A stretch of DNA of 64,000 bases from Candidatus Woesearchaeota archaeon (GCA_021736975.1 JAIPET010000001.1:26147-90146); one strand, 5' to 3'; counted from the first letter of the stretch, positions 2,393 through 61,853 are shown. The notes: generated from the sequence alone by a model not told the origin. Numbers and translations: made by a program.

Positions 2393-2405
2393 TAGGTGAT
2401 CGTTA

Positions 2406-3246: not shown

Positions 3247-3277
3247 AAGGTGTCTCAGCCCACTTAGCCTGACTATT

Positions 3278-3366
3278 CCGACAAACCGGCCATTATTGTT
3301 TAGATTATTGTTGCCGTTGAGACCGTTATAATTATTGTTAAGGAACAGGACACGGCCCCAAGAGTA
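3278..3366 (-). repeat. DGR template repeat (TR), non-coding
   Basis: About 89 bp homologous to the 3' ends of both target genes; every difference from the VRs falls where the TR has T on the + strand (A on the coding strand); TR codons in the VR frame are mostly AAT/AAC and a stop codon is present. Confidence 0.8.
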
Positions 3367-3561
3367 GCCATTTCACTTTCTGGAAAGCCACCACCACTTC
3401 ACACATTAGGTGTCGTGGTTGTATTTTATAACAGCTAGGCTGTCATAGTGAAACGACGTGTAGTTCCAAGCTACTTCATTGCTTTTAATAAAGCAGCTGA
3501 GACAAAGTAGTAAGAATATATCTTATATAAAAACGTTTTTGTTTTCAGATTCTTTGGATGA

Positions 3562-48069: not shown

Positions 48070-48258
48070 TTTTTTTTTTATTTTTTACTTTTTGGGCATG
48101 CATAAATTATGTATTTATATCCGCGGAAAAAATATGGATGCGACCGTAATCAGCTAATGCTGATTGAATATAGTTGTTTTATGTGTTTTTTCTGCAAGAA
48201 AAAAAGCCGAAGGCTCAGTTCAAAAAATATTTTTCGCACTTCTTCAAAAACGAGCTTT

Positions 48259-48717
48259 TTACTTTTCAAAATAAGTTTTATATGACCTTAAAGTTGCATT
48301 TCCTATGCTTCTTGAACCAAAATTCCTATATAGAAATCCTAAAAATCCTGGAAATTGTACATTACTTATAATTAGATGAAAATTGACAACCTTGCCTTTA
48401 CTAGAAAACTCACAAAAATAATGTGACTTTCCATTCATCTTTTTTCCGGCTTGGTATTCTTCATCGAATTCAATTACAAATTTATCTGTTTGGACACTTT
48501 TAACAATATTTGTACGTTTCATAAGTCCTTCATTGTTTTTAATTATTACAAAATCCTTCCCTTCCTTATCCAAAACAACATTTGAAATTCCAGGCATTAG
48601 GCTAACTACACCAACAAAATGTTTCCCAATTTCTGCAAGTGATTTTTTAACTTTTTGTATATCGCAATCAATTTGATTAGAACCATCGAACCAAACAGAT
48701 TTTTTTAATTTAGTCAT
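48259..48717 (-). CDS. hypothetical protein
   Basis: 152-aa ORF bracketed by an 18-bp perfect inverted repeat. Confidence 0.4.
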   Translation of the reverse strand: MTKLKKSVWFDGSNQIDCDIQKVKKSLAEIGKHFVGVVSLMPGISNVVLDKEGKDFVIIKNNEGLMKRTNIVKSVQTDKFVIEFDEEYQAGKKMNGKSHYFCEFSSKGKVVNFHLIISNVQFPGFLGFLYRNFGSRSIGNATLRSYKTYFEK

Positions 48718-48897
48718 ATAAAACTTATTTCTTTATTATTATATAAATGTATTCGTCATCCAAGATAAATATTTTTTTAATTGAATGCGCTATGTGTTAA
48801 ATGATTGTGTGGTAGAATGAAAGAAGCAATATTTTGTTTAAATGTTGATAAGTTGTGTGAGGCAAAGTCGAAACCCGTAGATTTTTATTATTGCGCG

Positions 48898-49179
48898 TTA
48901 TTTGTAAATATTTTTTCTATGGCCTATTTCAATAACAATAATTAAAAGTTTGCCTGCTTTAATGTCAATAATTACTCTATAGTCTCCAACTCGTAATCTA
49001 AAATAAGGAGAAGCAACTAATTTTTTAACGTGAGAATGTGGTCTAATTCTACATCTTTCTAATGTAGAAATAATTCTTCTAGAATCTTGTTTATTTAGTT
49101 TATTTAGGAATTTTTTAGATTCGTTTGTAAAAAAAAGATCAAACACTAAAAAATCACCTCGTGATTTTGTGTGCACCAA
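48898..49179 (-). CDS. RelE/ParE-family type II toxin
   Basis: ...YFRLRVGDYRVIIDI...IIVIEIGHRKNIYK. Confidence 0.7.
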   Translation of the reverse strand: MVHTKSRGDFLVFDLFFTNESKKFLNKLNKQDSRRIISTLERCRIRPHSHVKKLVASPYFRLRVGDYRVIIDIKAGKLLIIVIEIGHRKNIYK

Positions 49180-49203
49180 AAATTTTTAATTTTTAAGTGC
49201 ATT

Positions 49204-49422
49204 TTACATTCCTAATTCCTTTTTAACATCTTCAAGAGAATAAACTCTTCCTGCTTTAATATCTTCTTCAGCTAGTTTGATTCTTTTTTTAGTTTCTTCA
49301 GATAATTCCATGGAATCCTCTAAAGCATCCCAAATTACTTCTTCATAAGATTCTTTATCATACATCTTTCTCTCTTTTAGTTTTGAGAGCAATTCTTGAC
49401 TTACTGATATTGTTGTTGCCAT
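49204..49422 (-). CDS. antitoxin candidate (RelB-like) upstream of RelE
   Basis: 72-aa acidic protein immediately upstream of and co-oriented with the toxin. Confidence 0.45.
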   Translation of the reverse strand: MATTISVSQELLSKLKERKMYDKESYEEVIWDALEDSMELSEETKKRIKLAEEDIKAGRVYSLEDVKKELGM

Positions 49423-49999
49423 AACAACTATATAATTGACTATATATATAAATATTTTGTTTTTTTAAGGCTTAAAAGAAAATTAGAACCTAAATACAAT
49501 TGCAACTAATCCTTGTAGGGCTGAAATTTAGTACCTCGTTCCGAAGGAAAATTTTTGAGTAAGCGGGCGGGCGACATTCTAAGCAAATTGGGATAGGATT
49601 ACTAAAGAAATTATTGCAAGAACAGATTTAATACCTGTATCGGGACATGAATATACTCATAGAGTGCAACATAACAATGGAGTTGTGTCTAAAAAATATT
49701 CAATATTTATGGAAGGTCATGCAAGGGGAGTGCAAAGACAATTATCTGAAGATTATCAAGAGTGAGAAGACAACGAAGCATTTCTCTATAACATTTTGGA
49801 CATCACAGTTGGAGAATTTAAAAGTACATATTTATGGATGTGTAAAAAGTTAGGCCAAGAACCAAGTAAAAGTTTGTTAAAAACAAAAAGCATACGAAGC
49901 AGGAAGAAAATAAATTTTACTTTTTTTTAGCTTTCCTTTATTCTTATTTTATCTTTCGGTTTAGTCAAAGCCCTATTCTATTTTTAGCCCAAATCTCAA

Positions 50000-50042
50000 A
50001 TTGCAATTAATCCTTGTTATACGTTTTTTCTGCAAGAAAAAA
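50000..50042 (+). repeat. dif-like site followed by the hairpin TTTTTTCTGCAAGAAAAAA; start of a 130-bp repeat module
   Basis: ATTGCAATTAA-TCCTTG-TTATACG then a perfect 8-bp stem with GCA loop; the module 50000-50130 is about 95% identical to 56125-56245. Confidence 0.6.
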
Positions 50043-50155
50043 AGCTGAAGGCTCAGTTAAATTTTCACGTTAATAAATATCGACCAAAGGGAGCCTATAT
50101 GTCCGAAGGACGAGTTGGGGCGTTTTAAATAGTTAAATATATAATGAGTTAATGT

Positions 50156-51159
50156 TTGTTTGTTCTTATGGTTGCAAACGATGATGAAATTAGAACAATA
50201 TTCAAATCATTAGATTTAAACATAAATAATATTTCTAAAGTCAAAACACTTGCTAATTTCTTGGTTAAAGTTGAAACTGATAAAGGGAATTATTTTCTAA
50301 AGATTTATGATAGTAAAATAGAAGCTAAGACAGGTTACAAATTAGCTCATTTGTATCCGCTTTTATTAGAAAATAATATTCCTGTTCCAAAAGTTGTCAA
50401 ATATGATGACAGTTTAGAATTAGTTAAGCATCCTTACTTGATAATTACTGAAATTGAAGGTCAAATGCTTTGCGATGTAATTGAGACAATGAGCAGAAAA
50501 GAAAAAGTTTCTTTTTATTATGAATTTGGAAAAATAATTGCGAATTTCCATTCAATTACTTTTGATAAATTCGGAGAAACTTTTGATGGTAAAACTGTTC
50601 AGAATTTTACTGAAGCAAATAATAAAGGTCCGTTTGATAATTGGAAAGATATGCATAAAGAAATAATCGAATTTAGGTTAAATATTTTCAGAAACTCAAG
50701 TTTTGAAGATCTAATTGAACCTATTAGTTCTTGGTTTGAAAAAAATTCAGATCTTATTGATTATCATATTACTCCGAGACTACTTCATATTGATTTAAAT
50801 CAAAAAAATGTATTCGTGAATAATAATAAAATTTCAGGAATAATTGATTTTGATGGAGCTTTTGTTGGACATAATGAAGAAGAATTAATGAGAACTGAAG
50901 GTGCAAATTTTTCAAATGATGAAGAATTAAAGCAATCATTTTTCGAATGATATACAGAAATTATTAAATTAGATTCTGATTATGAACTACGAAGAAAATA
51001 CTATTATTTTGCAAGATTACTTGTTCATACTGATTGCATAATTCAATATGGTGAAAGTTATGTTGATGTTAAAAAAGAAGGAGATATTGTTAGAAAAGAA
51101 ATTTTTAAATTATTAAATGATGAAGAAATTGATTTTAATAAGAATAAGCGAAATACTTA
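50156..51159 (+). pseudogene. aminoglycoside/choline-kinase-type phosphotransferase (APH family) with in-frame TGA at 50948-50950
   Basis: HIDLNQKNVFV (HxDLxxxN) and IIDFDGAF (DFG/IDxD) motifs; the same frame stays open for 69 more codons after the TGA, giving a typical family length of about 334 aa. Confidence 0.55.
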
Positions 51160-51214
51160 ATCTAGCTCCAACTCTTTTTGTTTCTTTTTTCTAAAAAGAA
51201 AATAGTGAAAATTT

Positions 51215-51238
51215 AATTGCGTATAAGCCTTGTTATAC
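51215..51238 (+). repeat. dif-like palindromic site ATTGCGTATAA-GCCTTG-TTATACG
   Basis: 7-bp perfect inverted arms CGTATAA/TTATACG around a 6-bp spacer; a member of an at least 10-copy family, all in + orientation, lying between the single-gene units. Confidence 0.6.
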
Positions 51239-51302
51239 GTTTTTTCTGCAAGAAAAAATCGCGAAGTGAAACGTAGCGACAGTATGACGCAAGGTGGTGG
51301 CG

Positions 51303-51860
51303 TTACAGAAGTGGCTTAATATTATTAAATAATTCTTCAAATTCAATATATCCTGCTTCCTCGTTAAAGTGTCCTGCATTTTTTATAATATTAGGTATTG
51401 CACCAAGTTTATCTGCTAACTCATTTGCACATTCTATTGGAACGTAAGGGTCATTATCTGAATGATAAATAAAGAATTGTTTACAATTTTGTTTTATCTT
51501 TGACCAATCAAAGGTTTTATCTACAAATGTTCTATTGATTGAATCAAAAGTTTCATTTCCTAATAATTTTAAGAAACCTGAAATGAAATATGAACCTTTG
51601 ATTGTTACATTAATATGTTCCAATACACTTAGTAAAAATGCAGGTGCTAAACTATGACCTACAAAAATGGTATTCTCATCAATTTGGTTTTCATATTCTG
51701 CAAAAATAGTATTCCAGTTTTCCAATGATTGATTTTCAGGAGTTGGAAATTCAGGAACAATCACTTCGTGATTTAATTCTTCTAATTTTTGCTTTAACCA
51801 AGGAAACCAGTTTTCTTTTGGATTACCAAAAGCACCATGAATGAGGAAAATTTTTGTCAT
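51303..51860 (-). CDS. alpha/beta hydrolase (YdeN/RBBP9-like serine hydrolase)
   Basis: 185 aa, GHSLA nucleophile elbow, D and H later in the sequence. Confidence 0.55.
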   Translation of the reverse strand: MTKIFLIHGAFGNPKENWFPWLKQKLEELNHEVIVPEFPTPENQSLENWNTIFAEYENQIDENTIFVGHSLAPAFLLSVLEHINVTIKGSYFISGFLKLLGNETFDSINRTFVDKTFDWSKIKQNCKQFFIYHSDNDPYVPIECANELADKLGAIPNIIKNAGHFNEEAGYIEFEELFNNIKPLL

Positions 51861-51920
51861 AATAATATAATAGAAAGCAGGATTTTATAAGATTTGTGAT
51901 TAAGCCACCACCTGAGTAAT

Positions 51921-51944
51921 ATTGCGTATAATCCTTGTTAAACT
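51921..51944 (+). repeat. dif-like site (right arm degenerate)
   Basis: ATTGCGTATAA-TCCTTG-TTAAACT. Confidence 0.5.
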
Positions 51945-52064
51945 CTCCGTTAGGATTGATTTTTAGTGCAACGATGCCGAAGGCAAAAAATCAAAGTCGA
52001 GAAAGAGGGCGTTCTATTTAATGAGCGAATGCAATACATCAAGAACAGGAATATAGGGGCACAC

Positions 52065-52982
52065 TCACGTTTCTTTTAGTTCATATACATTATCCAATAA
52101 ATCTGGCTTTGGAATTGAAGATAATTCTCCTTTACTTCCACTTTTAACCCATTTAATATGCCATAAATATAGAAGTCCGACAGACATTTGTTCTAAATAT
52201 ATTCCTAATGTCCAAATTATTCCTTCATAAATTATTACTACTGTCCAAAATAAAGATGAGAATGCAACACCAGATTTATCCAAATAAATAATTATTATCA
52301 ATGGAATAGCCATAAATAATGATGCAATACCTGTTAAAGTATATGTTGTAATAAATTGTAATGGATGTTTTTTTATGACTTCAAGAGATCTTTTAAACGC
52401 TGAAAATGGTCCTTTATTTTCCCAAGCAATAGCTGGTAATGTTAAAAAGATGTACATTCTAACTAATTTTTCAAACATTCTTAATCCGAGTTTTAACCAA
52501 CTAAAGGGTCCAGAGTTTGCTCCTCCTAATGTTAATGCAGCATCTCTAGGAGATGGTTCTGGTCTTGAACTTCTTCCTTTCTTTTTACTAGTTAAAACTC
52601 TAATAATTAGTAGAATAAACCAAACAATTGCCCAAATTAGCGCGACTGGAATTACTTTTATCAAATCTAAAAATACTGCTTCTTTTATTGCTTTTCCAAA
52701 TGATATTTTTTCTCCGAATTCAATCTGTTGCATGAATTCAAGCATCATAATATTTGCAACACAAATAATTAATGTAATCAGGAAAATTACTCCAAATATA
52801 ATTAATAGTAGTAATCCTAAATCATTTGGTGCTTCAAAATAATACCTTAGATATAATATAATTGATGCAACTAAAATCCATGAGAAAAATATTGGGATTA
52901 GAAAAATTGGTTTTCTAAAAAGAAATTTGAATGAATCAGTAAAAAGTTTCCATCCTTCGCCTAGTTTACCTAAAAATGCCAT
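52065..52982 (-). CDS. polytopic membrane protein
   Basis: 305 aa with several hydrophobic helices; flanked by two nested perfect 14-bp inverted repeats. Confidence 0.45.
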   Translation of the reverse strand: MAFLGKLGEGWKLFTDSFKFLFRKPIFLIPIFFSWILVASIILYLRYYFEAPNDLGLLLLIIFGVIFLITLIICVANIMMLEFMQQIEFGEKISFGKAIKEAVFLDLIKVIPVALIWAIVWFILLIIRVLTSKKKGRSSRPEPSPRDAALTLGGANSGPFSWLKLGLRMFEKLVRMYIFLTLPAIAWENKGPFSAFKRSLEVIKKHPLQFITTYTLTGIASLFMAIPLIIIIYLDKSGVAFSSLFWTVVIIYEGIIWTLGIYLEQMSVGLLYLWHIKWVKSGSKGELSSIPKPDLLDNVYELKET

Positions 52983-53084
52983 TTAAATATTAAATGTCAA
53001 GAGTAATATATAAATATTTCTAGAGTGAGTGTGCCCCTTTCAAATCTTTAGCCCTCTTTCTCGATTGAGTTTAAGTGCTGTTAT

Positions 53085-53125
53085 CTTTCCTGACGACCAA
53101 AGGGAGGAAAGCGCAGCGGGGCTCG
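53085..53125 (+). repeat. repeat module B: CGACGACYRAARGGAGGARAGCGCAGCGGGGC
   Basis: Copies at 53085-53125, 53958-53995 and 58897-58930, partial at 60072-60100; contains the SD-like AAAGGAGG. Confidence 0.5.
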
Positions 53126-53299
53126 AAGGTGTAGCGAAGCGGAACCATCGAGAGTTGAGAATAAGTCCGTCCATCAGATGAACGAAGTGGTACATCTAGA
53201 CAAATCATCGAGGGGTTTGGTTGTTAGAAAACTTGTTGCCACTAAATAGAGACTATAAAGCGAAAGGTTTTTAAATACATAATCATTTTCCTTTTTAAA

Positions 53300-53902
53300 A
53301 TGACAATAATAATTCCAAAATATTCAGAATCAAAAATTGTTGAACCAACAAAACAAGATTATCAACAACTAAGTATTGATATGCCTGATAAGAAAAATAT
53401 AAGATTAGCATCATTAGATGAAATAAAAACTTTTTCTGGAGTTGATTTATCATATGGAGTTCCAATTATTAAAAAAGGATTTTTTGGAAATAAAAATTCA
53501 GATTTATATGCACCAACTGATGAAGATTGTTCTAGATTAGGAATAGAAAATAATTATGCCGTATCTCAAGAAGGTGATGTAATGCTAAAAAGTTATTCTT
53601 TAGAAGATGGTGTTGCATATGTTTCTGATCCACATGGAAGTTTAGTTGAAACTTTTGCAAAAAGTTCAGCAATAGCATCGGATGTAATCAAAAATGGAAT
53701 TGTAAATATGAAAGTATTTATCAAAGATGCAGGTATTGGAAATTTAGTATTAACCCATCCTGATGTGGGTACTTCTTTAAAAAATCATGGATCAAAATTT
53801 GTTGATACCTTATTTCCAAATTATAGAAAAATAATGGCAACAATACCAGATTCAAGTTCGCAAGGTATAACATCTAACGGACTAGAATATGCATTATATT
53901 AA
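53300..53902 (+). CDS. hypothetical protein
   Basis: 200-aa ORF; TATA-like TTTTTAAATA about 25 bp upstream; flanked by a 14-bp perfect inverted repeat. Confidence 0.45.
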   Translation: MTIIIPKYSESKIVEPTKQDYQQLSIDMPDKKNIRLASLDEIKTFSGVDLSYGVPIIKKGFFGNKNSDLYAPTDEDCSRLGIENNYAVSQEGDVMLKSYSLEDGVAYVSDPHGSLVETFAKSSAIASDVIKNGIVNMKVFIKDAGIGNLVLTHPDVGTSLKNHGSKFVDTLFPNYRKIMATIPDSSSQGITSNGLEYALY

Positions 53903-54102
53903 ACCAAACCCCCTTCTTTTTTTTAGGACTTATTCTCAATTGAAGATAATTCCTGTTATGTCTCCCGACGACTAAAAGGAGGAGAGCGCAGCGGGGCAAA
54001 ATCCAAAGGATTTTGAGTTCAGAATTCGGGCGTTATTAATATTAACTTTAAAGTGGTAACAGTACCGAAAGATTTATAAATATAAAGTCAATTCATTTTA
54101 TT

Positions 54103-54387
54103 ATGAGATTATATCAAAAAATTATCGCTGGAGGAATAGTAATTGCTGGTTTGGCTGGACTTACTGGATGTAAAGATAATTCTAATCAAGAATCTCAAAG
54201 AAATGAACCTGCTCCATCACATTTTGCGACAGTTCCAATGGTTTATGAAACTGGAATGTCAATGACGAGTGGAGATTTTGATGGAGATGGAGATTTAGAT
54301 TTGATTGTTGGAGCAAAATATCCTGGAAAAAGCGAAGGACGAGTTTATAGATTCAACAATGATGGAGAAGGTAATCTTTCTCAGTAA
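54103..54387 (+). CDS. lipoprotein with FG-GAP/VCBS-like repeat
   Basis: Signal peptide and lipobox LTGC; DFDGDGDLDLIVGAKY; TATA-like TTTATAAATA about 25 bp upstream. Confidence 0.5.
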   Translation: MRLYQKIIAGGIVIAGLAGLTGCKDNSNQESQRNEPAPSHFATVPMVYETGMSMTSGDFDGDGDLDLIVGAKYPGKSEGRVYRFNNDGEGNLSQ

Positions 54388-54433
54388 ATCTTTCGGTTTC
54401 TATAATTATACTTTTAGCCCGAATTCTGAATTA

Positions 54434-54472
54434 GACATAATCCTTGTTATACGTTTTTTCTGCAAGAAAAAA
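54434..54472 (+). repeat. dif-like half site plus hairpin TTTTTTCTGCAAGAAAAAA
   Basis: ...ATAA-TCCTTG-TTATACG followed by the hairpin; a variant module is shared with 51239-51300. Confidence 0.5.
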
Positions 54473-54518
54473 TTGCGAAATGAAATGGAGCAACAGTATG
54501 ACGCAGAGAGCTTTTCCG

Positions 54519-55016
54519 TTACTTGTTGAAAAAATTAATACATTCTGGAATTACTTTTAGAAAATTCTCTGGAGAATTATTTAAACTTTGAAGTAATTCC
54601 TCTTTTGAAAACCATTTGATTTTTTCAACTTCATCTTCTTGAATTGTAAATTGTTTTATATCTTTATCGACTAAAGCAAAAAACCATTGAGTAAAATGTT
54701 TGTGTTCTCCATCGTGAAAATGATGAAATGACTTTTGAAATTTTTGATTCTTTAAACCAATCTCTTCTTCAGCTTCTTTAACAATATTGGATTCATATGA
54801 TTCTCCTTCATCAATAGTTCCAGCAACTGCTGGACCCCATTTCCCAGGATTATTTTTTTTGTTAAATGATCTTTGTGCAAGGAGAATCTCGCCATTAGAA
54901 TTTTGAATCCATAAAGCTGAAACTCTATAAATATCAGATTGGTTTAAAGTTCCTCTTTCTTTAGAACCTATGATTTCATCATTTTCATTTACAATAACTA
55001 TTTTTGCTTTAGACAT
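54519..55016 (-). CDS. NUDIX hydrolase
   Basis: Nudix box GTIDEGESYESNIVKEAEEEIGL. Confidence 0.75.
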   Translation of the reverse strand: MSKAKIVIVNENDEIIGSKERGTLNQSDIYRVSALWIQNSNGEILLAQRSFNKKNNPGKWGPAVAGTIDEGESYESNIVKEAEEEIGLKNQKFQKSFHHFHDGEHKHFTQWFFALVDKDIKQFTIQEDEVEKIKWFSKEELLQSLNNSPENFLKVIPECINFFNK

Positions 55017-55075
55017 ATCTTTTTACAATTCAAGAAGTAATATAAATTTATCGAAAGGAAAAGCTCTCGAGTAAT

Positions 55076-55099
55076 ATTGCGTATAACCCTTGTTATATT
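55076..55099 (+). repeat. dif-like site
   Basis: ATTGCGTATAA-CCCTTG-TTATATT. Confidence 0.5.
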
Positions 55100-55167
55100 C
55101 CCCGTAGGGCAGAAATTTAGTGCAACGTCCCGAAGGGAAATTTCAGAGTTTTGGAAATGGGCCGTCA

Positions 55168-56064
55168 TTAAAAATTTGATATTAAAAAATCTGTAACAAC
55201 TTTTGCTAATTCTTCTTCCTTATCTTCAAAATCGTGATTAGTTTTTGGAATAATTACTGCTTTGGTTCTGCTGTTACTTTTCTTCAATAATTCAACTGAT
55301 TCGTTGACTGACATCATCATATGTTCAGAACCTTCTTTAACAACATCTGCATTTGTGAATTTGTCATTATTTGAAATTACTGCCAAAATAGGAACTTTAA
55401 TTTTAGAATAAAAATCCAATTTCTTTAGACGAAATGGAAATGCTTTAGATAATTCTGAATTGTCTGAAAACTGATTTATGAACGATTCGGCACTTTTTGG
55501 CAGTATCCCTGCGTGACTATACCATTGTGTTGTTAAAAATTGTTCTCTTTTATCTTTTTCAATTAGGTTTTTTGCTTCAGTAAATAAGTCATCTTTACAG
55601 TTAGTTTTATCCATGAATTTATGGGCACAACCAAAAGAATCAGAAAAACCTAAAAGTACAATTCCAGTAATTTTATCTTTATACTTTCCTTTATTCATGT
55701 AATAAACAATTTTTTCAGTTCCTAAACTATGGCCTTGTAGGATTATGTTTGAATATCCCTTATTTATGACAAATTCAATCCATGCATCAATATCCAAAAG
55801 ACAATCCTCAAAATTCTCGACCGCTGAGCCTGTTTTTTGCCAAGTGTGTGTCAAAACAGAATTTCCTCTGTTGTTAATTGATAACCACGAGAATCCATTT
55901 TTGGGAAAAGCAACAGCCATATTCTCAAAGAATGGCTCTTCATAAAAATTGCTTGCAGAACCATGAATATTAATCACGATTTTGTCTGAATTTTTATTTT
56001 CCAAAAATAATCCGTGAAGAATTAACTTGTCTTTTGTTGTTACAGATACTATTGGGTATTTCAT
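55168..56064 (-). CDS. alpha/beta hydrolase (esterase/lipase-like)
   Basis: GHSLG nucleophile motif, 298 aa. Confidence 0.6.
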   Translation of the reverse strand: MKYPIVSVTTKDKLILHGLFLENKNSDKIVINIHGSASNFYEEPFFENMAVAFPKNGFSWLSINNRGNSVLTHTWQKTGSAVENFEDCLLDIDAWIEFVINKGYSNIILQGHSLGTEKIVYYMNKGKYKDKITGIVLLGFSDSFGCAHKFMDKTNCKDDLFTEAKNLIEKDKREQFLTTQWYSHAGILPKSAESFINQFSDNSELSKAFPFRLKKLDFYSKIKVPILAVISNNDKFTNADVVKEGSEHMMMSVNESVELLKKSNSRTKAVIIPKTNHDFEDKEEELAKVVTDFLISNF

Positions 56065-56124
56065 ATCTATATAGATTTGAAGAAGAATTAAAAAGATTTC
56101 GTTTTAGGCCCCTTTCCAAAATTG

Positions 56125-56245
56125 AATATAAGCTCTGTTATACGTTTTTTCTGCAAGAAAAAAAGCCGAAGGCTCAATTAAATTTTCACGTCAATCAATA
56201 ACGACCAAAGGGAGCCAATATGTCCGAAGGACGAGGGGGGTCCAG
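56125..56245 (+). repeat. dif-like half site, hairpin and 100-bp repeat module (second copy)
   Basis: Near-identical to 50000-50130; ends in the left inverted repeat of the next unit. Confidence 0.6.
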
Positions 56246-56286
56246 ATTTTTTGTTTCTTTTTTTTTAAAAAAGAATATTGAATCTT

Positions 56287-57714
56287 TTAGTTTCTCATAA
56301 TTTTTTCAAAAATTAATCCTACAAATATTCCAACTATTCCTGCTAACAAATTCATTATTGCCGGTTCAAATCCAAATAAAGGAATCTTAAGAAATAAGTT
56401 TAATATTACTGATATTAATCCGAAAGATAGGGCAAACCAACCAACAGTTTTTGATTTAATTCCATGTAATGGGGCTAATAAGCAAGGAAGCAAACCCATT
56501 AAACCCGCAATTTGAATAGTTGCTAAACTTACGATGAATTTAGGAGGTGAAATAGAAAGTATTACACTTATCACTAGAACAGATATCATCAATATTCTGC
56601 TTAGAGATACTTTAATTTTTTCTCTTTTCAAAACATTTTCTTCAAATATTGCTGTTACTGAAAGTAGAACTGAATCTATTGTTGATATGGATGCTGCAAC
56701 AACTCCGACAATCACAAGTATGGATGCAATGATTATCAATCCTAGTAAAAATCCTGTTGAGTTTGACAAAACACTTTGAATAACATCTCCGACTACAAAA
56801 TCAGGGGTTGAAACAGCAACATTTGCTGCAGCGTATAAACCAATTAATCCCGCAAACAAAATTGTAAAAACTCCTGCAATTGGATACCACAAGCTAATCA
56901 TCTTTAGCGTCTTTTTATTTGCTGCCATTATTCTTACACTAACTTGAGGTGTTGCTAGAACAATGAATGCAAAAAGTATTGCATAGGAGATTAAAAGAGG
57001 TACTGTGAAATAGCCATTCGGACCTGGAATTGAAGTTAGTCCTGCTTCACTAATCTTTGCTAAAAAATTAGTGCCTTTCATAAAAAATAACAATACTGCT
57101 CCAAAAACACCTACTCCAACTAAAGTGAATATTCCTTGAATTTGATCAGTCTTTGCGTCAACAATAGAACCGCCCTTCCATAAATAAAATCCAACTAAAG
57201 CCGCAAGAATTATTAAACCAGTGATATAGCTAATTGCTCCATCTGTATATGAAACAAATAATTTGCCTATTCCAGCTAGTTGCAATATTAAATACGGAAA
57301 CAAAAATAATATTGTTGTCAAAGATAATATTTTTGAAAGACTTTTTGAATTATATCCATCTAATAACAATCCAATAGGAGAAAGAAAAGTTTTATTGTTT
57401 TTTTCTTGGTCCTGTCTTAGTTTTGATATTTTAACACCATAAGTCATTAAAATAATAGGAGTTAACATCACACCTAAACCGAGAAAGAAAAATGCACCGA
57501 CTCCATGTGCATAATATAATGCGGGTAAACCAACAACAGTGAATGCACTAAATGTTGTAGCAAAAAGAGAAAAGAAAATAAGGTTCGGACTAAGTCTTCC
57601 AATAGCAGTAAAAAATTCATAATTAGTGATTTTTTTAGGGAGTTTAATTTTAACCCATAAAGAAATTCCAATAACCAAGAGAATGGATATAATTGCAATT
57701 GTTAGTTCAATCAT
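56287..57714 (-). CDS. polytopic membrane transporter (sodium:solute symporter-like)
   Basis: 475 aa, about 12 hydrophobic helices. Confidence 0.4.
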   Translation of the reverse strand: MIELTIAIISILLVIGISLWVKIKLPKKITNYEFFTAIGRLSPNLIFFSLFATTFSAFTVVGLPALYYAHGVGAFFFLGLGVMLTPIILMTYGVKISKLRQDQEKNNKTFLSPIGLLLDGYNSKSLSKILSLTTILFLFPYLILQLAGIGKLFVSYTDGAISYITGLIILAALVGFYLWKGGSIVDAKTDQIQGIFTLVGVGVFGAVLLFFMKGTNFLAKISEAGLTSIPGPNGYFTVPLLISYAILFAFIVLATPQVSVRIMAANKKTLKMISLWYPIAGVFTILFAGLIGLYAAANVAVSTPDFVVGDVIQSVLSNSTGFLLGLIIIASILVIVGVVAASISTIDSVLLSVTAIFEENVLKREKIKVSLSRILMISVLVISVILSISPPKFIVSLATIQIAGLMGLLPCLLAPLHGIKSKTVGWFALSFGLISVILNLFLKIPLFGFEPAIMNLLAGIVGIFVGLIFEKIMRN

Positions 57715-58219
57715 AATTTAGATTTATTAATTAAAGTTTATAATGTTTTCTAAAATCAACGTGGACTTGGAATGTTTTTCTCAGTAAATCAATTTCGAAC
57801 AACAAAGTTGTGAGCCAATATGTGCGTAGCACCTGGACTCCCCCTCTTTTGCTTCTTTTTCTAAAAGAAGAATGAGATTTAGACTAGTGAAAATTTAATT
57901 GCGTATAACATCGCGATTAAGAGAAGTTGTTTGCAGTGACTTTAATCTATAAATAAGCAAACAATTTGGGCTAATTTCTGGTCGGGCACGAAGCCGATTT
58001 GCGAAGCAAAAAGAAATTACCTCTTAATCTGCTGTTGGGAGATTTTTTCTGAAAGAAAAAACACGAGCTGACGCACAAAGCGTCCTCGTGAGTAAAAAAT
58101 TATCTTTGGGTGGGGGGCGGAGGTGGAAACTCCGCAATTAAATAGGAAAAATTATCGTGTTATTTTGAGAAATTAGGGTTGGGCGAAAGACTTATAAACT
58201 ATAGGGTGATAACAAGAAT

Positions 58220-58570
58220 ATGATAAAAGAAATTTGGAAAGAATGTGTAGCACTTGGCTTAGCAGGAGCAATTTATTTTTCTCCAGCTGCGGTTGAAATT
58301 TACATGAACAGCAAATTTAAGGACATTGGAGAAGAATTTTCTGTAAGAGAAATTGGTAATCAAAGACAATTTTATATTGGTGCCGAGATGGGATTGGCTC
58401 GTCTTGCAATAGATGAAAACAAAGACGGCACCCTTGACAAAGTATATAGAAATATGCCAATTTCTCCAATGATGGGTGGTCCAGGATACAGATTGATGGA
58501 AACAGAAACAACCGCAACCGACAGAGAAAAATTTGCAAGGGCAGAACGACTTCTAAGCCAAGCAAAATAA
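58220..58570 (+). CDS. hypothetical protein
   Basis: 116-aa ORF; TATA-like CTTATAAACT about 25-30 bp upstream. Confidence 0.4.
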   Translation: MIKEIWKECVALGLAGAIYFSPAAVEIYMNSKFKDIGEEFSVREIGNQRQFYIGAEMGLARLAIDENKDGTLDKVYRNMPISPMMGGPGYRLMETETTATDREKFARAERLLSQAK

Positions 58571-58877
58571 ATTCTTTCTTTCAAAAATAAAGCCCTACCC
58601 TAAGAAAAATTTGGGAGAGCAAAGCGAACCCTTTACCCTTTGTTATATGAGGTGCGAAGCATTTCATTTCTGTTTTTGTTTGGTCGGGTAAAAGAAGTTT
58701 TTCATAGTATTTTCACGATGATTTTTCAGTATCTCGGGTGGGAAGAAAGATAATTTTTTATTTCCCCGAGCCGAAGAATGAGGCGAGTGGTGTAAATCCC
58801 AACGTCAGGGATATACGAAGTTTTTCTGGAACGAAGCGGAAGAAAAATTTGGGTGAAGCCCGAGCCGAGGGCTGAAC

Positions 58878-58897
58878 CGTATATCCCTTGTTATACG
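58878..58897 (+). repeat. dif-like site
   Basis: CCGTATAT-CCCTTG-TTATACG. Confidence 0.5.
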
Positions 58898-58969
58898 CCC
58901 CGACGACTGAAAGGAGGAGAGCGCAGCGTGGTGCGAACGAAGTGAGCAAGTCAGTGGAGTGGCGTTAAT

Positions 58970-59935
58970 CTAATAAGAAGTCGTTCTCGTTAAATGATAT
59001 GGTTTATCATTTTTTAATTTTTCTTGTCCAAGAATCCAAATATGATCGTTAACATGAATAGAATCTGCGTGTGCAATCTTCTTTTTTATCTTTTGTTTGA
59101 TTAGTTCTACAACCCAAACAGTATTTGCTCTTAATTCTATTTCTTCCTCGCTGTCTTTATCAATTTGAATTTGATTATCAATTTTATCAGCGAGGTAATC
59201 TGAATAAGAGAAAATACCTAATCTTCTTAAAACAAAAGGTAATTTATAATCGGCACACGCAGTTAGTTTATCAATATTTTTTAACTTGCCAAATTCGTGT
59301 CCGTTGAAAGCTTGCACAATATCAGCAACTAAAAGTTGTGCACGCTTGTAAAAATAAACTCTCTTTCCGTTGTAAGTTGATGAGTCCTCAAAAGAAGGAA
59401 AATTCTCAACTATCAAACTCAATAATTTTTGTGAATCGCCATTTGCTTTTTCTAGGAGATTAGTAAAATCGCCGTCAAATTTCTTGAGTAATGTTGTTCC
59501 AATTTCTCTTAAAATATTCAACCTTTCTTCAAAAAGAGGAATTTGAACATTTCCCTCCAAGATTTTACTAAGCTCTTCTTCTTTAATCTCAGAAAGAAAT
59601 TTTGCGTCCAAAATGGGAATTTTATTTTCTATTGCTCTGGCAACAGCACTTATCATTCCATACGCACCATCAACTTCTTCGGAATGATAAATTATTTTCC
59701 ATTTTGGGTCGCCCCAATATGAAAAACTGATTGAGTTAAACACGAGTAAAAAATGCAGTCTATCTTTCGGGCTTAACTTTTTGAGATTAAATGGCGATTC
59801 ATCAATCCAATGTTTGATATGAGAATGACTAAAATAATCAACAAACTCATCAACTTTTTCAGAGTTTATTTTTACGTGTTGAGAATTATCAACAACGAAT
59901 TTGCAAGTTTCAATTATTCTATTCATGTTATCCAT
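58970..59935 (-). CDS. hypothetical protein (possibly DUF2419 / queuosine-salvage-like)
   Basis: 321-aa ORF; the family assignment is tentative, from overall pattern only. Confidence 0.35.
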   Translation of the reverse strand: MDNMNRIIETCKFVVDNSQHVKINSEKVDEFVDYFSHSHIKHWIDESPFNLKKLSPKDRLHFLLVFNSISFSYWGDPKWKIIYHSEEVDGAYGMISAVARAIENKIPILDAKFLSEIKEEELSKILEGNVQIPLFEERLNILREIGTTLLKKFDGDFTNLLEKANGDSQKLLSLIVENFPSFEDSSTYNGKRVYFYKRAQLLVADIVQAFNGHEFGKLKNIDKLTACADYKLPFVLRRLGIFSYSDYLADKIDNQIQIDKDSEEEIELRANTVWVVELIKQKIKKKIAHADSIHVNDHIWILGQEKLKNDKPYHLTRTTSY

Positions 59936-60015
59936 TATAAATTAAAAAATGATACTAATTAAAAAATGTTTCTATAACGACTTCCACTTTGTAGCCACTC
60001 CACTGATTGCGTATA

Positions 60016-60039
60016 ATCGCTGTTCATTTTCCCGAGCGT
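60016..60039 (+). repeat. dif-like site (right arm degenerate)
   Basis: ATTGCGTATAA-TCGCTG-TTCATTT, overlapping the end of the right inverted repeat of the 58970 unit. Confidence 0.45.
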
Positions 60040-60215
60040 AATGAAATGAAGCGAGAGCCTGCAAGGCGTGGCACGAGCGGAACGACTGAAAGGAGTGACC
60101 TCGTGAGTTTCCAATCTCCGAAAATTCTTTGATATCATAGTTGCTGAAATGTATATTGACTATGTAGTAGTAAATAAATAGAAAGATTTAAAAGTAAACA
60201 GATTCTTCTTTTTCT

Positions 60216-60719
60216 ATGACAATGGAAAGTTCCCAAACATACGCGAAGCCATTTGATTTAGAAGAAAGGCTGGAAACTCAAGATAGCAGAAGCGCCTTTC
60301 AAAAAATCAAAGATGTATATTTCAAACCTAAATCTTTTGAAAAATGGAAGAACGGGAGAGTTTACGAATGGATTGGTGCAAAATATATTCAAAAAGCAGT
60401 GATGGGAACAGTAGGTAAACTCGGGCGTTCAATAGGAAGGGATGAAGAAAGTGGAACAAATTATTTTATTGGAAAACAATTAAATCTTGATGCCTTAGAA
60501 ACTTATGAAAGAAAAACAAGATTTAATGAAATGTTACATGCCCCCCAAATAATTTGGAACGCGTCTGTATTGGTAAAATATTTAGGTGATGGTAATTATG
60601 GCGGAGAGGTTTTCTGGGGAAGTTTTTTTCTTGCATTAAATAGTTCTTGCACAATTATTCAAAGATACAATCGTGCAAGAGTAGATAATGTCATAGAAAA
60701 AAGATACAAGAAAAAATAA
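60216..60719 (+). CDS. hypothetical protein
   Basis: 167-aa ORF. Confidence 0.4.
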   Translation: MTMESSQTYAKPFDLEERLETQDSRSAFQKIKDVYFKPKSFEKWKNGRVYEWIGAKYIQKAVMGTVGKLGRSIGRDEESGTNYFIGKQLNLDALETYERKTRFNEMLHAPQIIWNASVLVKYLGDGNYGGEVFWGSFFLALNSSCTIIQRYNRARVDNVIEKRYKKK

Positions 60720-61037
60720 TCTTTCTATTTTACAAAATACTTTTCAGCAATTTCGTTTAATCAGCGATGTTATGCGACAATTTTAATTTCGCATTGGAGC
60801 GTTAAGCGAAGATATCAAAATCAGAATTTTTGGTTTACCGACGCTAGGAGGAGATTGGAAATTGAAATGAACAATATATATACGAAAAAAGGCAAATTTT
60901 GCTTTTTTAGGACTTCAGAGTCTTAAATTTATGATTTCGATTCAGAAAAAGTGTTTTGATTTATTAGTGTCAAATCCGAAAATTTTCCAAAATTTTGATG
61001 GTAGCACATATAAATTTCATAATATTCACGTTCATTA

Positions 61038-61853
61038 ATGACTTTTGATGTTCTTTACAATATGAAAAGAGAAATGCTCCGTCGCAAACTTTCTCCAAGA
61101 ACAGTAAAAACCTATTTGAATTATGTTAAAATGTTTTTGCTTGCTAATAAAGAAAAAGATGTTAGAAAATTTTCTAAAAAAGACGTAAGAGAATTTCTTT
61201 ATAAACTTGAAGAAAAAAAAGTTTCAGGAAGTACACTAAATGTAGCTCATAACGCTTTGCGTTTCATGATGATTGATGTTTTACACAAAGCTTGTTATTT
61301 AAAAATAAAATATGCAAAAACTCCTGTTAGACAAATAGAATATCTAACTAAAGAAGAGGTTATTAAAATTTTAAATGTTATTGAAAATGCAAAACATAAA
61401 TTATTAATTTCTTTGATGTATGGAGCAGGTCTTAGAGTGCGAGAAGTGACTCGTTTAAAGATTACAGATTTTAGTTTTGAAGAAAATATTGGATTTGTTA
61501 GAGGAGGAAAAGGAAACAAGGATAGATTATTTATTATTCCTCAAAAAATAAAGAAAGAACTACAAAAAGTTTGTTCTCAAGAAACACACTGGATTTTTCC
61601 AGGAAGAAACGGTTCGTTAACTGTCAAATCTGTACAATTAATTGTTAAACAGGCAGGAAAGAAAGCAAAAATAAAAAAACATGTTCATCCACACATATTT
61701 AGACATTCATTCACAACGCATTTATTAGAATCAGGAATTGATGTAAATTCAGTTCAAGGACTTCTTGGACATGTAAGACCAGAAACAACTCTAGGATATT
61801 CGCATACATTAAGACCGAAAAAGATTACAATAAAAAGTCCGCTAGATTACTAA
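61038..61853 (+). CDS. xer: Xer-like tyrosine recombinase (XerA/XerC/D family)
   Basis: GLRVREVTRL (box I Arg); HPHIFRHSFTTHLLESGIDVNSVQGLLGHVRPETTLGYSHT (box II H-x-x-R...H...Y); 271 aa. Confidence 0.8.
   Translation: MTFDVLYNMKREMLRRKLSPRTVKTYLNYVKMFLLANKEKDVRKFSKKDVREFLYKLEEKKVSGSTLNVAHNALRFMMIDVLHKACYLKIKYAKTPVRQIEYLTKEEVIKILNVIENAKHKLLISLMYGAGLRVREVTRLKITDFSFEENIGFVRGGKGNKDRLFIIPQKIKKELQKVCSQETHWIFPGRNGSLTVKSVQLIVKQAGKKAKIKKHVHPHIFRHSFTTHLLESGIDVNSVQGLLGHVRPETTLGYSHTLRPKKITIKSPLDY

Follow-up and report, generated by a model that had tools for sequence, protein, structure and literature searches.

In integrons, a tyrosine recombinase gene ends a co-oriented array of mostly single-gene accessory cassettes, with a distinct insertion site beside the gene, and there is one fixed crossover by a conserved triplet. 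Integrons are already known in archaea (PMC9668308). In xerS-difSL, xerH-difH and archaeal xerA/dif, the recombinase gene is linked to a single site and serves chromosome dimer resolution. XerA recombines duplex dif without partners (PMC2958812). Modules of the xerA/dif type are known in some archaea, and CTX-type elements integrate as folded single-stranded DNA via Xer (PMC5357621). The pdif modules of Acinetobacter plasmids are small accessory-gene modules between inversely oriented XerC/D and XerD/C sites, and occur in varied contexts; how they move is unclear.

The locus described here lies on the chromosome of a member of the Woesearchaeota (a DPANN archaeon), in a stretch of 64,000 nucleotides, here called the window, to which all coordinates refer. 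Sixteen cassettes are found on one strand between 48173 and 60871, directly upstream of a Xer recombinase gene. The array ends at a conserved terminal site, 169 nt upstream of this gene, which encodes a XerA-type recombinase of 271 aa. We consider it likely that the locus is a chromosomal gene-cassette array, integron-like in its working and built on an archaeal XerA/dif module, although recombination is inferred rather than shown. The features are as follows.

~48095–48161, just upstream of S1: possible degenerate site or mini-cassette
48162–48186, +: site S1, the leftmost recognisable junction, GATTGAATATA GTTGTT TTATGTG, then an A-type module (TTTTTTCTGCAAGAAAAAAAGCCGAAGGC)
48173–48790, +: cassette 1; 152-aa ORF of unknown function, 48259–48717 (-); arms decayed; inverted repeats bracket the gene (48215–48235/48764–48784, and 48269–48286/48713–48730, 18 nt, perfect)
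48791–49509, +: cassette 2; ParE-family toxin 48898–49179 (-) and DUF7557 antitoxin-like gene 49204–49422 (-); end pairing decayed
49510–50010, +: cassette 3; no convincing gene (only a 68-aa ORF); degenerate B-like module; ends decayed
50011–51226, +: cassette 4; APH/fructosamine-kinase-like gene 50156–51160 (+); arms TTATACGT/GCGTATAA
51227–51931, +: cassette 5; Ser_hydrolase 51303–51860 (-)
51932–53074, +: cassette 6; DUF4013 membrane protein 52065–52982 (-); arms TTAAACTC/GAGTTTAA; hp2 module with AGTGCAACG at 51965; nested stems GAGAAAGAGGGC/GCCCTCTTTCTC and GGGGCACACTCAC/GTGAGTGTGCCCC
53075–53949, +: cassette 7; 200-aa ORF of unknown function, 53300–53902 (+); arms TTATCTTT/GAAGATAA; C-type module; 28-nt inverted repeat 53141–53168/53926–53953
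53950–54440, +: cassette 8; FG-GAP lipoprotein 54103–54387 (+); arms TTATGTCT/AGACATAA
54441–55086, +: cassette 9; NUDIX hydrolase 54519–55016 (-); arms TTATACGT/GCGTATAA
55087–56131, +: cassette 10; DUF1749 alpha/beta hydrolase 55168–56064 (-); arms TTATATTC/GAATATAA; hp2 with AGTGCAACG at 55119
56132–57908, +: cassette 11; sodium:solute symporter 56287–57714 (-); arms TTATACGT/GCGTATAA
57909–58028, +: cassette 12; 120-nt mini-cassette without ORF; spacer CATCGC; closing stem (ATTAAGAG/CTCTTAAT) around two or three hairpins
58029–58636, +: cassette 13; 116-aa ORF of unknown function, 58220–58570 (+); arms decayed, subterminal stem retained
58637–58884, +: cassette 14; non-coding, 248 nt
58885–60016, +: cassette 15; queuosine-salvage protein 58970–59935 (-); arms TTATACGC/GCGTATAA, 8/8 paired
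60017–60871, +: cassette 16, proximal to xerA; CrtO-like acyltransferase 60216–60719 (+); arms TTCATTTT/GAAATGAA
60861–60888, +: terminal site, putatively attI-like, ATTGAAATGAA / CAATAT / ATATACGAAAA; left arm from cassette 16
61038–61853, +: xerA-type tyrosine recombinase gene, 271 aa, without the IntI-specific insertion

The anatomy and the boundaries of the array are shown. Each cassette carries from none to several genes, in either orientation: three (3, 12 and 14) are gene-less and one (cassette 2) holds two genes. The cargo comprises ParE with an antitoxin-like gene, APH, two hydrolases, NUDIX, an SSF transporter, Q_salvage, the CrtO-like gene and unknowns. The APH gene of cassette 4 has an in-frame TGA at 50948–50950. 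A TATA-like box lies at -29 to -33 of the ATG in 11 of the 14 cassette genes. Of the 14, nine are encoded by the - strand and five by the + strand. The array does not fit the integron pattern of cassettes that mostly lack promoters, share one orientation and depend on a common promoter Pc. The cassettes encode no recombinase of their own, and xerA adjoins the array.

When the window was searched for ATTGCGTATAA-N6-TTATACG with up to 3 mismatches, 6 matches were found, against 0.04 expected. All lie within 50.0–56.2 kb. Only one is a - strand match, produced by the palindromic 51216 site overlapping itself; the other five are + strand matches. A position weight matrix (PWM) finds 11 + strand sites from 49.5 to 60.0 kb, while outside the array, in the other 48 kb of the window, it gives only one weak - strand match (35878) and nothing of note. 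By inspection, at least one site is present in 15 of the 16 intergenic regions between 48070 and 61037, the exception being the 24-nt gap within the toxin–antitoxin pair. All the sites in the window are in direct orientation with an 11+6+arm layout, and the presence of at least 17 copies means that this is not a single-site dif module.

The left arm has the consensus ATTGnnnnTAA, followed by a 6-nt spacer and an 8-nt right arm, TTAnnnnn. Each junction is a hybrid, made of the left arm of one cassette and the spacer and right arm of the next, and is not a palindrome as such. Within one site, the arms match as inverted repeats only by coincidence, their complementarity being at the random level (mean 1.72 vs 1.74 of 5 positions). 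The arms are highly variable for a sequence-specific Xer, which counts against the reading preferred here.

The original prediction, made from the sequence alone, was of a cassette-capture platform with co-oriented dif-like sites and a Xer-like recombinase. This is supported, by stronger evidence than was then given. Its list of accessory cargo holds as stated, as does the 271-aa Xer-type recombinase at 61038–61853; its claim that each unit has its own promoter largely holds, and that of a site in every intergenic region very nearly does. Its site coordinates need adjusting by only a few bases, for example from 58878 to 58874 and from 60016 to 60006. The claim of at least 12 single-gene units holds in part, given 16 cassettes of which one has two genes and three have none. 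The proposed 7-bp perfect palindromic arms are not supported, since the sites are hybrid and the paired arm is 8 nt. Where it saw copies that retain a single arm, two cassettes with unlike arms meet, and the last site is not the motif at 60750 but the distinct terminal site at 60861–60884.

The complementarity and covariation of the cassette ends are likewise shown. Pairing joins the right arm of site n to the left arm of the next site, n+1, and changes in one arm are compensated in the other. Over the five variable positions, pairing is perfect in 24% of consecutive pairs, compared with 2.8% of random pairs and 3.7% of same-site arms (p<=5e-5), and the covariation spans ten different arm variants. 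Within the window, 7–8 of 8 positions are paired in 10 of the 16 cassettes, and longer cassette-specific stems bracket each payload. When the window ends are joined, cognate ends gain -14.7 kcal/mol and non-cognate ends -3.4 +/- 2.8 (p<=5e-5); the real array junctions give -3.35. For 18 independent cassettes from elsewhere, with the arms excluded, the figures are -16.6 and -3.3 +/- 2.2, the cognate partner ranking first in 16 of 18. Helices of at least 11 bp account for 25.7 bp per cassette in cognate ends and 0.84 in non-cognate ends. The test for an excess of G.T wobble pairs on the + strand was weak or null, so that neither the folding strand nor the nucleic acid (DNA or RNA) is established; and since the stems are almost all Watson-Crick, cruciform extrusion in duplex DNA is also possible.

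On the + strand, each cassette runs in the order spacer, right arm, hairpin modules, stem halves, payload, complementary stem halves, left arm. The conserved modules 3' of the right arm, hp1 and hp2, are strongly strand-specific: CGAAG occurs 21 times in the intergenic DNA of the array and CTTCG not at all, and AGTGCAACG has 71 occurrences on the site strand against a single one on the opposite strand. The hp2 module has cGAAg loops and the invariant unpaired AGTGCAACG; its stem is 94.9% paired, with double changes in 5 of 9 pairs, a result reached by 0 of 500 shuffles. The modules are found in more than 120 metagenome contigs. The cassette ends are short, with a closing stem and three hairpins in about 92–130 nt. 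In cassettes 5 and 9, the 5' module can pair the spacer and right arm locally, as an alternative fold.

The same cassettes are found in different contexts. The Ser-hydrolase cassette 5 has a 91% identical copy in a metagenome contig (L099, 981–1688) whose flanks on either side are unrelated. Homology begins exactly where the spacer does and stops at the final left-arm base, both boundaries being base-exact, and this maps the crossover to the invariant TAA; from such boundaries, exchange is inferred to occur within or just 3' of the TAA. A crossover there would make every array junction a hybrid of two cassettes. Cassette 4 (APH) has an 85% identical copy beside another upstream neighbour in contig L110, which stops inside the 3' module of the cassette; the left boundary is again at the spacer. 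More breakpoints at sites were found between other loci. The spacer behind an identical left arm varies with context (TCCTTG or CATCGC) and the terminal spacer remains with the chromosomal half, which together place the exchange point on the left arm/spacer side. No recombination event was seen directly in the data examined. Cassette order is identical within one repeatedly sampled population (two MAGs, two read sets), and contig L062, whose ends overlap by 127 nt, is the sole candidate for a circular product and would be explained equally well by a tandem duplication.

Conservation beside xerA extends across species. The same architecture is found upstream of xerA in other Woesearchaeota, one of them a complete genome, with different cargo; between species the unit content is completely different, while sites and modules stay conserved. 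Across 15 Woesearchaeota xerA loci, all PWM matches lie upstream of xerA and on the strand of that gene, and none was found in ~150 kb downstream of xerA in these relatives. All sites are on one strand in 38 of 40 multi-site loci. When the modules, rather than the recombinase, served as the basis of a search, the arrays recovered included some that end immediately upstream of Xer genes with only 33–38% identity.

The product of 61038–61853 matches PF13495 and PF00589, with the RKHRHY residues present in the alignments. It scores 192.9 bits on the NCBIfam XerA model NF040815, under the cut-off of 220, and its best match among solved structures is P. abyssi XerA (E 9.5e-35), which aligns without a gap. 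Against the integron-integrase model TIGR02249 it scores 187.3 bits (cut-off 265), the match being split in two stretches. In the alignment with VchIntIA (2a3v), residues 177–198 (22 aa) stand opposite IntI 179–246 (68 aa), so that ~46 residues of the IntI-specific insertion are missing. Orthologues at 70–84% identity are found across Woesearchaeota MAGs. We infer that this adjacent XerA is the recombinase acting on the array, although its catalysis has not been shown. The spacer and right arm of the terminal site form a conserved chromosomal half, found 167–217 nt upstream of xerA in 14 other loci. By analogy, the terminal site is likely to be the counterpart of attI, and is probably the dif of this lineage; its function is inferred.

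On the basis of these observations, we hypothesise that new cassettes most likely enter at the terminal site beside xerA, in the manner of attI, the site retaining its own spacer and right arm, and that distal cassettes would decay after the entry of new ones. As single-stranded + strand DNA, each cassette would fold on itself, and a folded junction would then consist of two duplex arms around a spacer existing on the top strand only. XerA could thus exchange only that strand, and replication would complete the exchange, a logic like that of integron attC sites and CTX phage integration. That the platform uses folded single-stranded DNA is probable, though both this substrate and the exchange of only one strand are inferred. 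A bolder reading, for and against which we find the balance roughly equal, is that this is an independent archaeal form of gene capture, an 'inside-out integron', in which a housekeeping XerA acts on folded single-stranded cassettes with the payload inside the structure, by top-strand exchange at TAA, and insertion is at dif beside xerA. If so, the system would be widespread in DPANN archaea, would be one of the main sources from which their hypervariable gene content is drawn, and would offer a living model for the origin of integrons from a Xer/dif module.

The alternative that survives best, and remains possible, is a conventional version of the same platform, in which small IMEX-like circles are integrated and excised by XerA as duplex DNA at dif-like sites. 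The repeats and hairpins would then serve transfer or replication of the circle, binding of accessory proteins as at cer/psi, or bidirectional termination and insulation. In its favour, the arm–6 bp–arm layout is that of dif, XerA handles duplex dif without partners (PMC2958812), the stems are nearly all Watson-Crick with no wobble excess, and T-rich hairpins such as TTTTTTCTGCAAGAAAAAA could terminate in either direction. Against it, a homodimer on duplex DNA gives no reason for compensatory changes between cassette ends, partner spacers differ (nCCTTG, CATCGC, CAATAT) and should block the second strand exchange, the spacer always moves with the right-hand side, and the modules are strongly strand-asymmetric.

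It is unlikely that the modules act instead as RNA, whether as processed or circularised transcripts or as a guide or regulatory RNA for recombination. Such a role would fit the strand-specific conserved secondary structure, the covariation, the invariant unpaired 9-mer, and the cloverleaf-like folding of mini-cassettes. However, an Rfam search of the modules gave no matches, RNAalifold with RNA parameters gave no consensus for them, payload genes face both ways with promoters inside the stems, and the boundaries mark crossover of DNA at a dif-like site. The cGAAg triloop is, moreover, a hallmark of stable DNA mini-hairpins. An RNA role additional to DNA recombination remains possible.

A canonical integron or attC cluster, as reported in Archaea including Nanoarchaeota/Woesearchaeales (Ghaly et al. 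2022), is very unlikely. The score of 187 bits on TIGR02249, the PF13495 N-terminal domain, and the position of the recombinase at the array end next to an attI-like site would support it; against it are the score below cut-off, the missing insertion, and cassettes with their own promoters facing both ways. The motif strings were not found in the text supplements of Ghaly et al. 2022. Sites of attC type were considered and rejected, by pairing and not by an attC covariance model: same-site arms pair at the random level and junctions gain only -3.35 kcal/mol, so no intergenic region holds an attC hairpin. With a recombinase lacking the integron-integrase insertion and sites failing the attC definition, this is not an integron.

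Also very unlikely is that there is no recombination system, only REP- or MITE-like elements or terminators spread in a variable genomic island with xerA a neighbour by chance: structured, strand-biased intergenic repeats are common in prokaryotes, no event was seen directly and the array is stable in the sampled population, but the elements occur only upstream of xerA and on its strand across recombinases 33% to 84% identical, with a conserved terminal half-site at a fixed distance, cassette-specific complementarity across the payload, and the same cassettes in different contexts with site-exact boundaries.

Returning to the XerA-based cassette array, the likeness to integrons goes beyond the recombinase gene, the array and the insertion site. 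Crossover would be at one conserved triplet (TAA here, AA/C on the integron bottom strand), the sites are set more by pairing than by sequence, with structural information on one strand, and the array includes a toxin–antitoxin cassette. Unlike in integrons, the recombinase is XerA-like without the IntI-specific domain; the pairing partners flank the payload, so that the payload is inside the folded structure; the hairpin halves are split when integrated and rejoined only in a circle or by looping out of the cassette; only a 6-nt spacer separates successive structures; cassettes bring their own promoters and their genes face either way; and cassettes with several genes, or with none, are common.

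With IMEX and CTX elements the locus would share integration at or beside the host dif by a host-type Xer, and it shares tandem accumulation with hybrid dif-like junctions. Cassettes without a recombinase of their own, an adjacent xerA and recurrence in other contexts are consistent with IMEX, given the inferred catalysis by XerA; a folded single strand with a single exchange completed by replication, as in CTX (PMC5357621), is inferred here. It differs in its minimal cassettes without replication, transfer or phage genes, in their much larger number, 16 in a row, and in belonging to Archaea with what appears to be a single XerA (single-copy status is unverified); self-complementary ends and shared structured modules are absent from IMEX. 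The small accessory-gene modules between Xer-type sites in varied contexts recall pdif, but the sites here are chromosomal, in direct orientation and beside xerA, with a homodimer-type Xer, a terminal entry site and cassette-specific end pairing. With xerS-difSL, xerH-difH and archaeal xerA/dif it shares a recombinase gene linked to its probable site, here about 170–215 nt upstream of xerA; unlike those single-site modules, it has a cassette array attached.

The original prediction that the layout resembles integrons or pdif modules, built from different parts and not recognisable as a described system, thus held, no prior description having been found in the literature searched. Three outcomes that would have told against it do not apply: the motif is not a general genomic element (judged, in 15 relatives, on ~150 kb downstream of xerA and, in the window, on the other 48 kb), unit content is not identical in relatives, differing completely between species, and Xer is not limited to a single chromosomal dif, there being many sites. 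It had missed that the sites are hybrid and the cassette ends self-complementary, and it had overlooked the conserved terminal (attI-like) site and the strand-specific structured modules.

If the interpretation is correct, integron-type gene capture would have evolved by a second route, on the basis of an archaeal chromosome-maintenance recombinase, and cassette platforms would be seen not to depend on IntI/attC. The array would provide a concrete mechanism for accessory-gene turnover in DPANN archaea, which have tiny genomes and in which, to our knowledge, no capture system of comparable kind has been described. IntI and Xer are closely related, and a Xer/dif module in which crossover takes place at a single, structure-defined position therefore makes the origin of integrons and cassettes directly testable. 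The cassette ends and the 271-aa recombinase would be attractive for genome engineering if active. Contigs often end a short way upstream of xerA, and the arrays may be the reason, though repeats alone would suffice.

The array of cassettes and its recombinase occupy the following positions in the window:

48173-60871, + strand: 16 cassettes, with dif-like sites at their junctions
61038-61853: xerA, coding for a Xer-type tyrosine recombinase of 271 aa with PF13495 and PF00589 domains

The motif ATTGCGTATAA-N6-TTATACG, with up to 3 mismatches allowed, has 6 matches in the window against 0.04 expected, all of them in the 50.0-56.2 kb interval. The + strand carries five of these; the remaining one, on the - strand, is the palindromic self-overlap of the site at 51216. 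With a PWM, 11 sites are recovered on the + strand from 49.5 to 60.0 kb, and the rest of the 64 kb yields only one weak match, on the - strand. By inspection, 15 of the 16 intergenic regions between 48070 and 61037 contain at least one site. A provisional site at 60750 ('S16') was discarded, the true terminal site being found at 60861-60884. The cargo consists of ParE with an antitoxin-like gene, APH, Ser_hydrolase, DUF4013, FG-GAP, NUDIX, a DUF1749 hydrolase, an SSF transporter, Q_salvage, a CrtO-like protein and three unknowns. TATA-like boxes of archaeal type precede the cassette genes, at about -30 from the ATG. The original prediction, of an array of co-oriented dif-like palindromic sites with accessory cargo and a Xer-like recombinase at its end, therefore holds as an observation, since site counts, intergenic coverage, cargo list and recombinase domains all agree with it. 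Its reading as a cassette-capture platform is supported and sharpened, in that the sites are hybrid and the cassette ends complementary. We interpret the array as a site-specific cassette platform, with the reservation that recombination itself has not been demonstrated.

Each site is composed of the left arm of one cassette, a 6-nt spacer and the right arm of the next. Reverse complementarity links the right arm of a site, R(n), to the left arm of the following site, L(n+1), and not to the left arm of the same site, as in these R(n)/L(n+1) pairs:

TTAAACTC/GAGTTTAA
TTATCTT/AAGATAA
TTATGTCT/AGACATAA
TTATATTC/GAATATAA
TTCATTT/AAATGAA

The arms pair at 7-8 of 8 positions in 10 of the 16 window cassettes. 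Across 137 loci, the PWM finds 178 sites, compared with 16 in shuffled sequence. Of consecutive R(n):L(n+1) combinations, 24% are perfectly paired at all five variable positions; random combinations reach this in 2.8% of cases and the arms within a single site in 3.7% (permutation p<=5e-5). Ten different arm variants lie behind this pairing.

Cassette-specific stems flank the payload beyond the arms, for example GAGAAAGAGGGC...GGGGCACACTCAC before the gene and GTGAGTGTGCCCC...GCCCTCTTTCTC after it. A generic inverted-repeat search was dropped because of AT-rich noise, and was replaced by tests of cognate ends (the 5' and 3' ends of the same cassette) against non-cognate ends. Within the window, joining cognate 3' and 5' ends gives a gain of -14.7 kcal/mol (DNA energy parameters), compared with -3.4 +/- 2.8 for non-cognate ends and -3.35 kcal/mol for real array junctions (p<=5e-5). 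The same comparison without the arms, made on 18 independent cassettes taken from other loci, gives -16.6 for cognate and -3.3 +/- 2.2 for non-cognate ends, and the cognate end comes first in 16. Strict helices of at least 11 bp amount to 25.7 bp per cassette for cognate ends and 0.84 bp for non-cognate ends. The pairing is mostly gone in the three cassettes most distant from xerA (48.2-50.0 kb). An excess of G.T wobble pairs, examined as a test of the folding strand, was weak when alignments were loose and disappeared once helices were strict. In two cassettes (at 51227-51300 and 54441-54510), local pairing of the spacer and right arm (CCTTGTTATACG) is also possible, with CAGTATGACGCAAGG some 55 nt further downstream and a 2-nt bulge. 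Such pairing would be an attC-like alternative fold, competing with pairing to the distal left arm.

Conserved hairpins, among them the modules hp1 and hp2, are found 3' of the right arm. In the intergenic DNA of the array CGAAG occurs 21 times, and its complement not at all. RNAalifold gave no consensus structure for hp2, and an explicit pair count was used instead: the outer stem is 94.9% paired, with changes on both sides in 5 of 9 pairs, a count matched by 0 of 500 shuffles and far lower in every slid register. The hp2 stem flanks an unpaired, invariant 9-mer, AGTGCAACG (for example at 51965-51973 and 55119-55127), which in related loci has 71 copies on the site strand and 1 on the other, where about 1.4 would be expected by chance. 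XerA or an accessory factor could recognise it. Read in direct orientation, the 9-mer is also similar to some left arms (ATTGCAAC...).

Cassettes without a gene (mini-cassettes, 92-130 nt) consist of an 8-bp closing stem, formed by right arm and left arm, around two or three hairpins. Where a cassette bears genes, it is the third hairpin (AGTTTTG...CAAAATT-G) whose loop holds the payload. No Rfam family was matched in the array at either the gathering or the E<=1 threshold. One family of mini-cassettes that lack a gene and measure about 95-120 nt recurs at 57909-58028 in the window and in seven other loci (L062, L094, L023, L067, L098, L103 and L110). It has an unusual spacer, CATCAG, CATCGG or CATCGC, and a larger cassette lies directly downstream of it at every known occurrence.

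The xerA-anchored loci share no cassettes, only modules being common to them. Shared cassettes were found instead through a metagenome scan for the module CGACCNNAGGGAGNNNANNTGTNCGAAGGAC, which gave at least 120 contigs. The Ser-hydrolase cassette of the window is also present, at 91% identity, in the metagenome contig L099, with unrelated flanks on both sides. Homology starts at the spacer, the sequences on either side of the boundary being AATTGCGTATAA and GCCTTGTTATACG in the window and ...TTTCTTGAAA and TCCTTGTTATACG in L099. It stops at the exact last base of the next left arm (ATATTGCGTATAA), past which the window has TCCTTGTTAAACT and L099 has CATCGCGGGTTAATG. The APH cassette recurs at 85% identity in a second contig, L110, with another upstream neighbour; L110 stops within the 3' module of this cassette, so that the right boundary is outside the contig. 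Breakpoints between other pairs of loci are at the same positions. From these boundaries it follows that the mobile unit runs from the spacer and right arm through to the left arm, the spacer moving with the right-hand cassette, and that the exchange point is within or just 3' of the invariant TAA.

A further contig, L062 (Ga0210057_1041134; 3711 nt), has a 127-nt terminal direct repeat that includes cassette-specific stems. Its path of a mini-cassette and a 3.3-kb cassette fits a 3.58-kb circular or tandem form, and it may be a circle or a tandem duplication, but this is suggestive only. The cargo, carried by the 3.3-kb cassette, is defence-like (N6/N4 DNA methylase, DndB-like and DpnI-like proteins). 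The 36-nt terminal overlap of L094 was rejected as evidence for a circle because it falls in a shared module. Both of these contigs consist of one mini-cassette of the recurrent family and one large cassette.

Orthologues of the window recombinase, with 70-84% identity, are found in many Woesearchaeota. In a 538-kb contig, a 59-kb contig and the complete 1.13-Mb genome CP060219.1, the same sites again precede xerA and share its strand. The cargo of these three loci is unrelated to that of the window and includes multi-gene cassettes, but the modules and nested stems are the same. In 15 species-representative loci, all PWM matches of at least 13 bits are upstream of xerA and on its strand, with none in about 150 kb downstream. 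The terminal site is 167-217 nt upstream of xerA in 14 loci. Its left arm is variable, its spacer is distinct (CCATAT, CAATCT or CTCTTT type), and its right arm is conserved (ATATGCGAA, then GAATT), a pattern to be expected if circles insert at a chromosomal half-site that stays fixed. We consider it likely that this site is the dif of a xerA/dif module, such modules being known in some archaea (PMC5357621).

Among the loci of the module-based set that reach a recombinase, L124 and L067 have a Xer-type gene (33-38% identity) directly downstream of the last site. Module arrays end beside Xer-type recombinases only 33-43% identical to the window protein in L124 (~5440-5694, oriented), L067 (~3180-3399, oriented), L039 and L103, all contigs of unknown taxonomy. 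It is therefore probable that the system is not confined to this Woesearchaeota family.

The recombinase stays below the cut-off of two models, with 192.9 bits against 220 for NCBIfam XerA and 187.3 bits against 265 for the integron integrase. The latter match is in two pieces because the IntI-specific insertion is absent: 22 residues lie opposite 68 in VchIntIA, while the alignment with P. abyssi XerA is continuous. On the evidence of arm and junction pairing, the array sites fail the definition of an integron attC. Integrons reported from archaea to date combine canonical attC sites with an IntI that has the extra domain (PMC9668308), and the array motif strings are absent from those text supplements of that work that were examined. 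Clusters of attC sites lacking an integrase have also been reported from Woesearchaeales. In contrast to pdif modules, which need inversely oriented sites, the array has sites in direct orientation only; and it has many of them, whereas archaeal dif is reportedly single-copy (PMC8371274; PMC2958812). In its working the system resembles both integrons and tandem IMEX elements, but it belongs to neither family. The literature searched, whose coverage was incomplete, contained no account of Xer-linked cassette arrays from DPANN archaea, and novelty is unproven.

The anatomy, the boundaries, the covariation, the linkage to Xer and the presence of the same cassettes in different contexts are shown. 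The mechanism is inferred, and we regard its single-strand version as no more likely to be right than wrong. In this version, each cassette would fold on itself when the + strand is single-stranded. At the folded junction, one duplex arm, R(n-1):L(n), and a second, R(n):L(n+1), would flank a 6-nt spacer present on the top strand only, and on the cleaved strand each arm would run on into the hp3 stem via the conserved ATTG. Exchange of the top strand alone is predicted, at TAA, with replication completing the event. A single-stranded circle could be released by two XerA molecules acting as a pair at neighbouring closing stems. The model would account for arms that are obliged to pair yet free to vary, for the unmatched arms of one junction, and for spacers that differ between partner sites yet move with one side. 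Integration of CTX phage proceeds in this way, by a single-strand exchange completed by replication (PMC5357621). Integron attC x attI recombination is likewise a one-strand exchange completed by replication. A duplex, IMEX-like mechanism remains possible, but leaves both the compensatory arm changes and the heterologous spacers unexplained.

The source of the window is a Candidatus Woesearchaeota (DPANN) population with a G+C content of about 30%. The recombinase and 13 kb of array are identical in contig JAIPGR010000017.1 of GCA_021735585.1, and are also present in GCA_021734925.1 and two Logan assemblies. Exact-protein look-ups with two cassette proteins found the same strain only, with cassette order unchanged, and there is therefore no evidence of recent rearrangement. 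In the xerA-locus set, 9 or 10 of 15 contigs stop within 2.5 kb upstream of xerA; this was downgraded as proof that the population is heterogeneous, since breaks within repeated modules also occur in short contigs of the window's own strain. Two MAGs from one population differ by about 100 nt in the FG-GAP gene (window 54214-54348, L146 6803-6837), with products of 94 and 150 aa, probably through variation in repeat number inside the gene; the rest of their array is 99.98-100% identical.

The APH cassette gene contains an in-frame TGA at 50948-50950, where the L110 copy reads GGA (Gly). The window copy is thus a nonsense pseudogene or codes for a truncated protein. An alternative genetic code was rejected on the grounds of this GGA and of the array gene at 52065-52982, which reads as ending in TGA.

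It is worth adding that the gene directly adjoining the array on the left (45667-48069) codes for an 800-aa fusion of a PfkB-family (adenosine-kinase-like) domain and S-adenosyl-L-homocysteine hydrolase. The start of the window (293-3502) is a virus-like stretch, with the following features in and beside it:

293-2392: phage portal protein
2443-3246: C-5 cytosine DNA methylase fragment
3359-3502, - strand: Rfam RT-16 RNA (84 bits)
3562-6449: ORFs without Pfam matches, beside the virus-like stretch
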